This document shows positions 4,109-21,171 of a stretch of DNA of 21,171 nt, piece by piece; the stretch's first letter is position 1; each line of letters opens with the position of its first letter. The stretch is from assembly GCF_003334355.1 (NCBI RefSeq), contig NZ_QOWP01000047.1; one strand, written 5' to 3'. The position numbers were made by a program, and so were the translations under genes. The notes under the pieces were generated by a model. That model saw nothing but the letters and a program-made list of their open reading frames with translations. It searched no databases and was not told where the DNA came from. The stretch is from Escherichia coli. GTDB lineage: Bacteria; Pseudomonadota; Gammaproteobacteria; Enterobacterales; Enterobacteriaceae.

Positions 4109-5161
4109 ATGAATTATCAGAACGACGATTTACGCATCAAAGAAATCAAAGAGTTACTTCCTCCTGTCGCATTGCTGGAAAAATTCCCCGCTACTGAAAA
4201 TGCCGCGAATACGGTTGCCCATGCCCGAAAAGCGATCCATAAGATCCTGAAAGGTAATGATGATCGCCTGTTGGTTGTGATTGGCCCATGCTCAATTCAT
4301 GATCCTGTCGCGGCAAAAGAGTATGCCACTCGCTTGCTGGCGCTGCGTGAAGAGCTGAAAGATGAGCTGGAAATCGTAATGCGCGTCTATTTTGAAAAGC
4401 CGCGTACCACGGTGGGCTGGAAAGGGCTGATTAACGATCCGCATATGGATAATAGCTTCCAGATCAACGACGGTCTGCGTATAGCCCGTAAATTGCTGCT
4501 TGATATTAACGACAGCGGTCTGCCAGCGGCAGGTGAGTTTCTCGATATGATCACCCCACAATATCTCGCTGACCTGATGAGCTGGGGCGCAATTGGCGCA
4601 CGTACCACCGAATCGCAGGTGCACCGCGAACTGGCATCAGGGCTTTCTTGTCCGGTCGGCTTCAAAAATGGCACCGACGGTACGATTAAAGTGGCTATCG
4701 ATGCCATTAATGCCGCCGGTGCGCCGCACTGCTTCCTGTCCGTAACGAAATGGGGGCATTCGGCGATTGTGAATACCAGCGGTAACGGCGATTGCCATAT
4801 CATTCTGCGCGGCGGTAAAGAGCCTAACTACAGCGCGAAGCACGTTGCTGAAGTGAAAGAAGGGCTGAACAAAGCAGGCCTGCCAGCACAGGTGATGATC
4901 GATTTCAGCCATGCTAACTCGTCCAAACAATTCAAAAAGCAGATGGATGTTTGTGCTGACGTTTGCCAGCAGATTGCCGGTGGCGAAAAGGCCATTATTG
5001 GCGTGATGGTGGAAAGCCATCTGGTGGAAGGCAATCAGAGCCTCGAGAGCGGGGAGCCGCTGGCCTACGGTAAGAGCATCACCGATGCCTGCATCGGCTG
5101 GGAAGATACCGATGCTCTGTTACGTCAACTGGCGAATGCAGTAAAAGCGCGTCGCGGGTAA
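4109..5161 (+). CDS. aroG: 3-deoxy-D-arabino-heptulosonate-7-phosphate synthase, Phe-sensitive
   Basis: 350 aa ORF recognised as E. coli AroG (MNYQNDDLRIKEIKELLPP...), full length. Confidence 0.96.
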   Translation: MNYQNDDLRIKEIKELLPPVALLEKFPATENAANTVAHARKAIHKILKGNDDRLLVVIGPCSIHDPVAAKEYATRLLALREELKDELEIVMRVYFEKPRTTVGWKGLINDPHMDNSFQINDGLRIARKLLLDINDSGLPAAGEFLDMITPQYLADLMSWGAIGARTTESQVHRELASGLSCPVGFKNGTDGTIKVAIDAINAAGAPHCFLSVTKWGHSAIVNTSGNGDCHIILRGGKEPNYSAKHVAEVKEGLNKAGLPAQVMIDFSHANSSKQFKKQMDVCADVCQQIAGGEKAIIGVMVESHLVEGNQSLESGEPLAYGKSITDACIGWEDTDALLRQLANAVKARRG

Positions 5162-5169
5162 GGTTTAAT

Positions 5170-5246
5170 TGTCGGATGCGCCGTCAGAGTGGCGTATCCG
5201 ATGAATCACCACAGGCCTGATAAGTCGCGCAGCGTCGCATCAGGCA
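5170..5246. repeat. Two REP (palindromic unit) elements in opposite orientation, BIME-like
   Basis: TCGGATGCGCC...GGCGTATCCGA (about 5172-5202) and GCCTGATAAGTCGCGCAGCGTCGCATCAGGC (about 5213-5246) match the E. coli REP consensus families (GCCGGATGCGGCG... / GCCTGATGCGACGC...) and form imperfect palindromes. Confidence 0.75.
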
Positions 5247-5265
5247 ATGTGCTCCATTGTTAGCA

Positions 5266-5305
5266 ACAAAAAAGCCGACTCACTTGCAGTCGGCTTTCTC
5301 ATTTT
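5266..5305. terminator. Bidirectional intrinsic terminator between convergent aroG and gpmA
   Basis: Stem AGCCGACT (5273-5280) / AGTCGGCT (5288-5295) with loop CACTTGC, flanked by an A-run on the left and a T-rich tract on the right, so it is followed by U-runs on both strands. Confidence 0.8.
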
Positions 5306-5318
5306 AAACGAATGACGT

Positions 5319-6071
5319 TTACTTCGCTTTACCCTGGTTTGCAACCGCCGCTGCTTTCGCTGCGATCTCGTCAGCATTACCCAGATAATAGCGTTTCAGC
5401 GGTTTGAAATTCTCGTCGAACTCATACACCAGCGGCACGCCAGTCGGGATATTAAGCTCAAGAATCTCTTCTTCGCTCATGTTATCAAGATATTTCACCA
5501 GCGCACGTAAAGAGTTACCGTGTGCAGCGATGATCACGCGCTCACCGCTCTTCATACGCGGCAGAATAGTTTCATTCCAGTAAGGGATCACGCGGTCAAT
5601 GGTCAGCGCCAGGCTTTCCGTCAGCGGCAGTTCTTTCTCGCTCAGTTTCGCGTAACGCGGATCGTGACCCGGATAACGCTCATCATCTTTAGTCAGTTCC
5701 GGCGGAGTCACTGCAAAACCACGACGCCACTGTTTCACCTGCTCGTCGCCATACTTTTCAGCAGTTTCCGCTTTGTTCAGACCCTGCAACGCACCGTAGT
5801 GACGTTCGTTCAGTTTCCAGGATTTCTCAACGGGCAGCCATGCCTGATCCAGTTCGTCCAGCACATTCCACAGGGTATGGATAGCGCGTTTCAGCACAGA
5901 AGTGTAAGCAAAGTCAAAGCTGTAACCTTCCTCTTTCAGCAGCTTACCTGCTGCTTTTGCTTCGCTTACGCCTTTCTCAGACAGATCCACGTCGTACCAA
6001 CCGGTGAAACGGTTTTCTTTGTTCCACTGACTTTCGCCATGACGAACCAGAACCAGCTTAGTTACAGCCAT
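5319..6071 (-). CDS. gpmA: 2,3-bisphosphoglycerate-dependent phosphoglycerate mutase
   Basis: Translation recognised as GpmA ([25 protein letters not shown]...), 250 aa. The ORF-track entry (5319..6086) extends 5 codons to an upstream TTG; the ATG at 6071 is preceded by a GAGGAG ribosome-binding site and matches the known N terminus. Confidence 0.94.
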
Positions 6072-10702: not shown

Positions 10703-10774
10703 AAAAAAAGACGCGGTTTAATGCCTGCATGCGTCGAACCGTTGGCCGGAGAGGGCGCTTAGGCCGCCTCCGGC
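10703..10774 (-). terminator. Probable modF terminator region (two stem-loops; the distal one is followed by a U7 tract)
   Basis: GC-rich hairpin GCCGGAG...CTCCGGC (10745-10774) directly after the modF stop, then a second hairpin GACGC...GCGTC followed by TTTTTTT on the minus strand (complement of the A-run at 10703-10709). Confidence 0.45.
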
Positions 10775-20363: not shown

Positions 20364-21098
20364 ATGAATAAGAAATCGTTATGGAAGCTAATTCTGATAT
20401 TAGCGATCCCATGTATTATTGGCTTTATGCCAGCTCCGGCAGGATTAAGCGAACTGGCGTGGGTGCTTTTTGGTATTTACCTGGCGGCCATTGTGGGGCT
20501 GGTTATCAAGCCTTTCCCGGAACCTGTCGTACTGTTAATTGCCGTTGCTGCCTCAATGGTGGTGGTCGGTAACTTATCCGACGGTGCGTTTAAAACCACC
20601 GCCGTATTAAGCGGTTACTCTTCAGGTACCACCTGGCTGGTGTTCTCGGCGTTTACCTTAAGCGCCGCATTTGTGACCACCGGTTTAGGTAAACGTATTG
20701 CCTATCTGCTGATTGGTAAAATCGGTAACACCACGCTGGGTCTGGGTTACGTTACGGTATTCCTCGATCTGGTACTGGCTCCGGCAACACCGTCTAACAC
20801 CGCGCGTGCGGGCGGCATTGTGTTACCGATCATCAACAGCGTGGCGGTGGCTTTGGGGTCCGAACCGGAAAAAAGTCCGCGTCGTGTCGGACATTACCTG
20901 ATGATGTCCATTTACATGGTCACCAAAACCACCAGCTATATGTTCTTTACCGCAATGGCGGGGAACATTCTGGCGCTGAAAATGATCAACGACATTCTGC
21001 ACCTGCAAATTAGCTGGGGTGGATGGGCGCTGGCAGCCGGATTGCCGGGCATCATTATGCTGCTGGTCACCCCGCTGGTGATTTACACCATGTACTGA
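20364..21098 (+). pseudogene. ybhI: DASS-family (divalent anion:Na+ symporter-type) transporter YbhI, N-terminal 244 codons only, interrupted by an IS10 insertion
   Basis: The hydrophobic multi-helix translation is recognised as the N-terminal half of YbhI (about 477 aa in reference K-12 as I recall). The reading frame ends ...VIYTMY-TGA, where the TGA is supplied by the first bases of the IS10 terminus (CTGATGAATCCCC). Confidence 0.85.
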
Positions 21099-21171
21099 TG
21101 AATCCCCTAATGATTTTTATCAAAATCATTAAGTTAAGGTAGATACACATCTTGTCATATGATCAAATGGT
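21095..21171 (+). mobile_element. Terminus (outside end) of IS10 / Tn10-type insertion sequence, partial, running off the window
   Basis: CTGATGAATCCCCTAATGATTTTTATCAAAATCATTAAGTTAAGGTAGATACACATCTTGTCATATGATCAAATGG is recognised as the IS10 terminal inverted repeat and adjacent transposase-promoter region, including an IHF-like site (TATCAAAATCATTA) and the Dam GATC site at 21161-21164. The transposase ATG would lie about 30 bp past the window end. Confidence 0.8.

Follow-up and report, generated by a model that had tools for sequence, protein, structure and literature searches.

In E. coli, REPs are imperfect palindromes of 30-40 nt with a GTAG foot (PMC3333891). Within BIMEs they typically lie in inverse orientation, tail-to-tail; BIME-1 joins a z1 and a y unit through a long L linker bearing an IHF site, and BIME-2 joins a z2 and a y unit through a short S linker and is usually found in tandem (PMC3333891). 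Gyrase is stated to favour REPs of the y type and stem positions that are non-complementary (Topo-seq; PMC6379681), and insertion of IS1397 is specific to REPs (PMC1525189). Translation is reported to be lowered when a REP lies less than 16 nt from a stop codon (Liang, Rudd and Deutscher 2015, cited in PMC12306157). REP-containing transcripts are reported to be stabilised upon ATP depletion, and fluoride upregulates aroG, with which the EcoCyc element REP70 is listed (PMC10100675).

We analysed a 21,171-nt stretch of E. coli DNA (hereafter the window) in which the original prediction, made from the sequence, had placed a REP/BIME cluster and a bidirectional terminator between aroG and gpmA. 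This spacer is, with high probability, the known REP70 locus together with a terminator shared by the two genes. The locus is ordinary and already documented, and its importance beyond correct annotation is small. It offers a worked example of a shared bidirectional terminator, of REPs in the 3'UTR of one gene, and of REP decay by loss of the GTAG and CTAC feet.

The aroG-gpmA spacer and its terminator

The window is 99.6% identical to K-12 MG1655, aligning to 781.4-802.6 kb, and in this region the MG1655 coordinate is the window coordinate plus 781,524. The aroG-gpmA spacer is 100% identical to that of K-12, and the 301 bases around the locus match MG1655 and many other strains at 100%. The gap between the convergent stop codons measures 157 nt. 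An inverted-repeat scan found three hairpins within it, all at the coordinates first noted, and when the spacer was folded against dinucleotide shuffles the z scores were -5.8 and -5.7 for the two strands, with none of 200 shuffles equalling it. The features of the spacer are listed below in window coordinates.

5159-5161, plus strand: aroG stop codon TAA (ORF 4109-5161; aroG annotation in MG1655 and W3110)
5166-5167, minus strand: minor 'alternative primary' gpmA 3' end (TRS 786688-786697, peak 786690/1; PMC10687069)
5169-5204, plus strand: REP1, a degenerate y-like REP in the GCC..GATG-first orientation (core 5172-5201; inverted repeat, fold and REP model)
5177-5179, no strand assigned: gyrase cleavage sites in the REP1 5' arm, at the G.T position (Topo-seq with ciprofloxacin and oxolinic acid)
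5205-5210, no strand assigned: tail-to-tail linker between REP1 and REP2 (sequence compared with canonical BIME-2 copies)
5211-5247, minus strand: REP2, a z2-type REP (EcoCyc REP70; 34-bp BIME-2 list entry; head match, REP model and published list)
5264-5266, minus strand: primary gpmA mRNA 3' end (TRS 786785-786796, peak 786788/786790)
5265-5305, no strand assigned: bidirectional intrinsic terminator (A6 5265-5270; stem 5271-5280/5288-5297; loop 5281-5287; T-rich tract 5295-5305)
5300-5302, plus strand: aroG mRNA 3' end (Term-seq 786824; TRS 786820-786829, peak 786824-6)
5319-5321, minus strand: gpmA stop codon (ORF list; MG1655 and W3110 annotation)

Both REP units are extragenic, and all parts of the element lie between the aroG and gpmA stop codons, in agreement with the extragenic position at a convergent junction that had been proposed. 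The RefSeq feature tables of MG1655 and W3110 hold no REP features in the aroG-gpmA stretch. An Rfam gathering scan of the window returned nothing inside the spacer, a result that is uninformative for or against REPs; its only matches in the window were two tRNAs and an RtT element at 1-280. The window itself is not K-12: close to its start (1-320), in the tRNA-Lys/RtT repeat area, there is a difference of about 156 nt, and its last ~77 nt (21095-21171) are unaligned to MG1655.

The hairpin nearest gpmA resembles described bidirectional intrinsic terminators in its succession of A-tract, GC hairpin and U-tract, in having ends mapped on both strands and in its overlapping transcripts, and nothing in it is notably different. 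The stem (10 nt, 100% in the inverted-repeat scan) is perfect, and folded alone the terminator reaches -14.4 kcal/mol on the plus strand and -21 kcal/mol on the minus strand. AAAAAA (5265-5270) precedes the hairpin and TTTCTCATTTT (5295-5305) comes after it, so that each strand reads the hairpin and then a U-rich tract. On the aroG side the U-tract is interrupted (UUUCUCAUUUU), and termination in the aroG direction may therefore be weaker. A consensus terminator scan flagged the plus strand only; the minus-strand terminator was presumably missed because an extension of the stem absorbs the U6 run, as it does in the minus-strand fold.

Published 3' ends were available for both strands. Term-seq (PMC7815308 supplement) placed a plus-strand 3' end at 786,824 (window 5300), and the TRS set (PMC10687069 supplement) assigned 786,820-786,829 to 'Primary aroG', with a 3'UTR of 141 nt, and 786,785-786,796 to 'Primary gpmA', with a 3'UTR of 56 nt that holds no REP. 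The same supplement draws the terminator hairpin described here. Across the hairpin, the 3' ends of the aroG and gpmA mRNAs overlap by ~37 nt. The aroG 3'UTR takes in both REPs, and the main gpmA mRNA contains neither. It is very likely that the hairpin at 5271-5297 acts as an intrinsic terminator in both directions, and the symmetric terminator with U-tracts on both strands that had been predicted is borne out. The accompanying suggestion that the element may stabilise the 3' ends of both mRNAs needs refining for gpmA, since the main transcript ends at the terminator before reaching the REPs and at most read-through RNA could be affected. On the minus strand, the minor gpmA end at 5166-5167 lies 5-6 nt beyond the REP1 hairpin, and the supplement of PMC10687069 draws the REP1 hairpin. 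We infer that this end represents read-through RNA that was terminated or trimmed at REP1. A literature search for a small RNA in the aroG 3'UTR gave only a GcvB paper, which does not appear relevant.

REP2 and REP1

Half-site consensus searches for REPs were weakly informative against shuffles, and a covariance model was therefore built instead. The source was 400 kb of W3110, which yielded 77 REP units corresponding to 39 distinct strings; 37 strings were kept and two 41-mers, which re-matched shorter units only, were dropped. All three types (y, z1, z2) were represented in the training set, each unit having an intact head and a CTAC tail. The model was built on the aligned units with the canonical stem, and the window was scanned with filters off. 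In 200 kb of a control genome every match above 13.9 bits was a catalogued REP, and the top non-REP match scored 13.8 bits, a chance level of once per 100 kb; several catalogued REP-like entries of the curated BIME list reached only 10-11 bits by the same model.

REP2 is an unambiguous z2-type REP. Its head, GCCTGATGCGACGCTG, matches on the minus strand at 16 of 16 positions, the inverted-repeat arms (5215-5228/5232-5245) extend over 14 nt at 79%, and the unit folds at about -16 kcal/mol on either strand. The covariance model scored it (5213-5245, minus strand) at 35 bits, with E=4e-7 in the window. The BIME table of the Topo-seq paper (PMC6379681) contains the entry 'BIMEs2 788280-788314, 34 bp'. 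The reference used there is W3110 plus a 1122-bp cassette (4,647,454 versus 4,646,332 bp), and W3110 is offset from MG1655 by +422 at this place; the listed interval falls at window 5212-5246, and its sequence is exactly CAGGCCTGATAAGTCGCGCAGCGTCGCATCAGGCA, which is REP2. The coordinate offset was checked on nine other entries of the list, all of which land exactly on REP sequences.

When compared with described E. coli REPs (y, z1, z2; REP70), REP2 shares the z2 consensus, the G.T and C/T stem mismatches, the extragenic position, a place in the BIME list and its use as an IS1397 target. It differs in its foot, which reads ACAG in place of GTAG in the window and in the K-12 allele, and in one broken stem pair of the same allele. 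Among five other E. coli alleles sampled, the foot is GTAG in three and ATAG and GGAG in the remaining two, and the GTAG foot is intact in E. albertii. In the alleles with GTAG (these three and that of E. albertii) the stem is intact and the score is 56 bits. Strain Z1323HEC0016 (NZ_CP148382.1) carries IS1397 in the REP2 loop with a 3-bp GCA target duplication; the insertion occupies 1070-2490 of sequence L005 and corresponds to window 5229-5231. A full-length match at the locus is missing in 10 of 5426 genomes, and these ten may carry insertions similar to IS1397.

REP1 has inverted-repeat arms at 5172-5182/5191-5201 (11 nt, 91%). In RNA of the plus strand it forms a 15-bp hairpin whose onset is 7-10 nt after the aroG stop codon. 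Folded alone, it reaches -23 kcal/mol on the plus strand (z -6.1) versus -15.6 kcal/mol on the minus strand; the aroG-sense hairpin contains four G.U pairs, which work only in the sense of the aroG mRNA. Likeness to E. coli REPs is found in its y head, its stem geometry and its G.T mismatch: the head, GTCGGATGCGCCG, agrees with the y head at 11 of 13 positions, and GTCGGATGCGGCG occurs in the genome as a y variant in its own right. It differs in having lost part of the 3' arm consensus and in lacking the CTAC tail, where it reads CCGATGAAT, not CCGGCCTAC, in all sequences sampled. The covariance model ranked REP1 (5172-5201, plus strand) as the third-best match at 13.9 bits, with E=0.063 in the window; when the search was confined to the 157-nt spacer, E was 4.6e-4. 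REP1 is at the edge of noise genome-wide, and significant given a true REP 6 nt away in inverse orientation. The orthologue of REP1 in E. albertii (20.2 bits) still has the canonical CTTATC together with the two canonical stem mismatches, which argues that REP1 is a decayed y REP.

The two oppositely oriented REP units of the original prediction were thus recovered by the model scan that it had proposed, REP2 clearly and REP1 as a degenerate, borderline y-like unit. Comparison with published catalogues, also proposed there, agreed in part: REP70 (PMC10100675) and the 34-bp BIME entry account for REP2, and the BIME list of PMC6379681 does not include REP1, its aroG-gpmA entry covering REP2 only. 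As a by-product, a commonly used BIME list omits REP1 although gyrase cuts there.

Comparison with BIMEs, gyrase cleavage and IHF

REP1 (plus strand, y-like) and REP2 (minus strand, z2) lie in inverse orientation, tail-to-tail. The pair resembles BIME-2 in this inverted arrangement and perhaps in its modest gyrase cleavage at the stem mismatch of the y-like unit. It differs in that it is single-copy and not tandem, and in its linker, which measures ~6 nt versus the 12-14 nt S motif found between CTAC and GTAG in canonical BIME-2 examples of the same genome, whose units are 81-86 bp long. The gyrase signals are also weak, and the listed 34-bp entry has none. The pair is a degenerate, minimal BIME-2-like element and not a textbook BIME; because there is no canonical S linker and no tandem amplification, the name BIME applies only loosely. 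Of the predicted 'REP/BIME cluster', the inverse y-like/z2 pair stands, and the term is loose in view of the ~6-nt linker and the single copy.

Gyrase cleavage at the locus has been mapped. For ciprofloxacin, the Topo-seq study (PMC6379681) gives trusted cleavage sites at 788,245-788,247; those for oxolinic acid are at 788,245 and 788,318. The sites at 788,245-7 correspond to window 5177-5179, in GGA[TGC]GCC, and the oxolinic acid site at 788,318 corresponds to 5250; the number within the listed 34-bp BIME interval is zero. The signals are modest (N3E 6.6-13.6 versus more than 100 at strong sites). The cleavage position in REP1 agrees with the reported preference of gyrase for y-type units and stem mismatches; the signals could also reflect supercoiling at a convergent junction, a place that draws gyrase in any case, and not recognition of a REP. 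The gyrase sites 786732 and 786767 were considered as BIME sites and rejected, as they fall in ybgS after the offsets of W3110 Mu SGS (+1122, +422) are applied.

For IHF, the consensus WATCAANNNNTTR has no match in the spacer, its sole match in the window being at 4144. The spacer contains no BIME-1 L linker, and the locus is missing from the BIME-1 list. Since neither the IHF consensus nor an L linker is present, IHF binding at the spacer is unsupported and not expected. The predicted binding of gyrase or IHF therefore retains some support for gyrase, from the Topo-seq sites in REP1, and none for IHF, REP2 being z2 and not z1. Overall, the original prediction was right about the identity of the element and loosely right about its function.

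Distribution of the locus and readings of its function

All 5426 complete E. coli genomes carry the locus, and E. albertii has both REP units (56.2 and 20.2 bits) in the full E. coli arrangement. The junction was surveyed across species by a degenerate-pattern scan with one genome per species. Among 120 aroG loci, a convergent gpmA was found within 700 nt in 31. In about 20 of the 31 the spacer was 41-72 nt long and held nothing but an A-tract, a hairpin and a T-tract, with hairpin sequences unrelated to that of E. coli; these terminator-only spacers were seen in Enterobacter, Citrobacter sp. FP75, Phytobacter, Cedecea, Pantoea, Erwinia, Morganella and others. The bidirectional design is shared by the aroG-gpmA junctions of Enterobacter, Citrobacter, Pantoea, Yersinia and others, with differing hairpin sequences. 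A single REP at the same place was observed in Citrobacter werkmanii (L021 1468-1499, 28 bits) and Kosakonia cowanii (L110 8473-8504, 24.7 bits), located between aroG and the terminator and oriented like REP2; these REPs either descend from an old insertion that most lineages have since lost, or the spot has been targeted repeatedly.

In a seven-sequence alignment, the variable columns numbered 9 of 30 and 11 of 37 in the two REPs, 6 of 22 in the aroG 3' end and 7 of 41 in the terminator, whose stem was invariant. The REP columns are about as variable as the aroG 3' end, which argues against strong selection on the REPs. From these comparisons, on a small sample, the terminator design is widespread and the REPs are a later, lineage-specific and weakly constrained addition to the aroG 3'UTR. 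Between REP2 and the terminator A-tract, at window 5264/5265, the sequences are also polymorphic for a 7-nt indel (AACGACA / GACGAAA); the window, K-12 and APEC37 lack these 7 nt, which other lineages of E. coli and E. albertii carry.

For the REP70 locus with its shared terminator we propose the following course. The RayT/TnpA-REP system would have brought in the REPs as mobile palindromes, which would now be decaying (GTAG to ACAG, CTAC lost), so that their present effects would be side effects of being stable hairpins. In the aroG mRNA they would give the 3'UTR two stem-loops able to stall 3'-to-5' exonucleases, and a role of REP1 and REP2 as exonuclease barriers is plausible from the analogy to other REPs. 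Because its hairpin begins 7-10 nt past the stop codon, REP1 may in addition slow the termination of AroG translation. The aroG stop codon ends at 5161 and the hairpin onset is at 5169-5172, within the <16-nt rule; the locus resembles the stop-codon-proximal REPs described in PMC12306157 in this respect, and REP1 could damp AroG translation under that rule. We consider aroG a candidate for translational damping of this kind. For gpmA the REPs would matter only for read-through RNA, which would end at the foot of REP1 just before becoming antisense to aroG, and on the DNA REP1 would be a weak gyrase cleavage site.

A stronger version of this course can be formulated. REP1 would have been remodelled in E. 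coli into a sense-specific hairpin of -23 kcal/mol, 7 nt past the aroG stop codon, that throttles AroG synthesis by stalling ribosomes at termination, which would tie DAHP synthase output to the status of helicase and ATP, and that stops gpmA read-through before it becomes antisense to aroG. The remodelling would consist of a T-to-G change at 5194, which repairs the canonical C/T mismatch, and of the four G.U pairs of the aroG-sense hairpin. We regard this version as unlikely. The opposite position, that the REPs are neutral passengers, that the terminator alone matters and that the read-through end and the gyrase sites are incidental to any stable hairpin at a convergent junction, is a serious possibility that we nevertheless rate somewhat below even. 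The terminator-only spacers of most Enterobacterales sampled fit this position, as do the invariant terminator stem next to REP columns that vary roughly like the aroG 3' end, the decayed REP2 foot in this allele, the lack of gyrase sites in the 34-bp BIME-list entry (REP2) and the tolerance of an IS insertion in REP2 by a natural isolate. It is harder to reconcile with the retention of the REP pair in 5426 E. coli genomes and in E. albertii at an unchanged distance from the stop codon, with the lowered translation reported for REPs less than 16 nt past a stop (PMC12306157), and with the reported stabilisation of REP transcripts upon ATP depletion and the fluoride upregulation of aroG, with REP70 (PMC10100675).

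The descent of REP1 may also be questioned. It could be an independent stop-proximal hairpin of aroG whose likeness to a REP head arose by chance or convergence, which would leave a single REP and no BIME. The missing CTAC tail, the absence of REP1 from the BIME list, a score of 13.9 bits next to 13.8 for the best chance match in 100 kb, and the four G.U pairs that strengthen the hairpin in the aroG sense (-23 versus -15.6 kcal/mol) all speak for such an origin. We consider it decidedly improbable in view of the 11 of 13 head positions shared with y units and the genomic y variant GTCGGATGCGGCG, the E. albertii orthologue with CTTATC, both canonical mismatches and 20.2 bits, the E of 4.6e-4 within the spacer, and the gyrase cut at the mismatch, as reported for y REPs; REP1 also has a bona fide REP 6 nt away, and the two show the inverse, tail-to-tail arrangement typical of BIMEs (PMC3333891). 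Least probable of all, and in our judgement very remote, is that the element is a BIME-1-type IHF-binding site organising local DNA architecture. Some BIMEs do bind IHF, a general statement only (PMC3333891), but BIME-1 needs z1, y and a long L linker, whereas sequence and loop length both mark the second unit of this pair as z2, the linker is ~6 nt, the spacer has no match to WATCAANNNNTTR and the locus is outside the BIME-1 list.

Elsewhere in the window, the REP model matched a REP-like hairpin, GCCGGAGGCGGCCTAAGCGCCCTCTCCGGCCAAC, at 10741-10774 on the minus strand, ~20 nt downstream of the modF stop codon (20.7 bits, E=0.0013). It is missing from the BIME list of PMC6379681 and may be an uncatalogued decayed REP. 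Within the aroG ORF, the Term-seq supplement (PMC7815308) lists internal RNA 3' ends at MG1655 785,746 and 785,904; these are window 4222 and 4380 on the plus strand, 113 and 271 nt into aroG, and may be sites of premature termination or processing.
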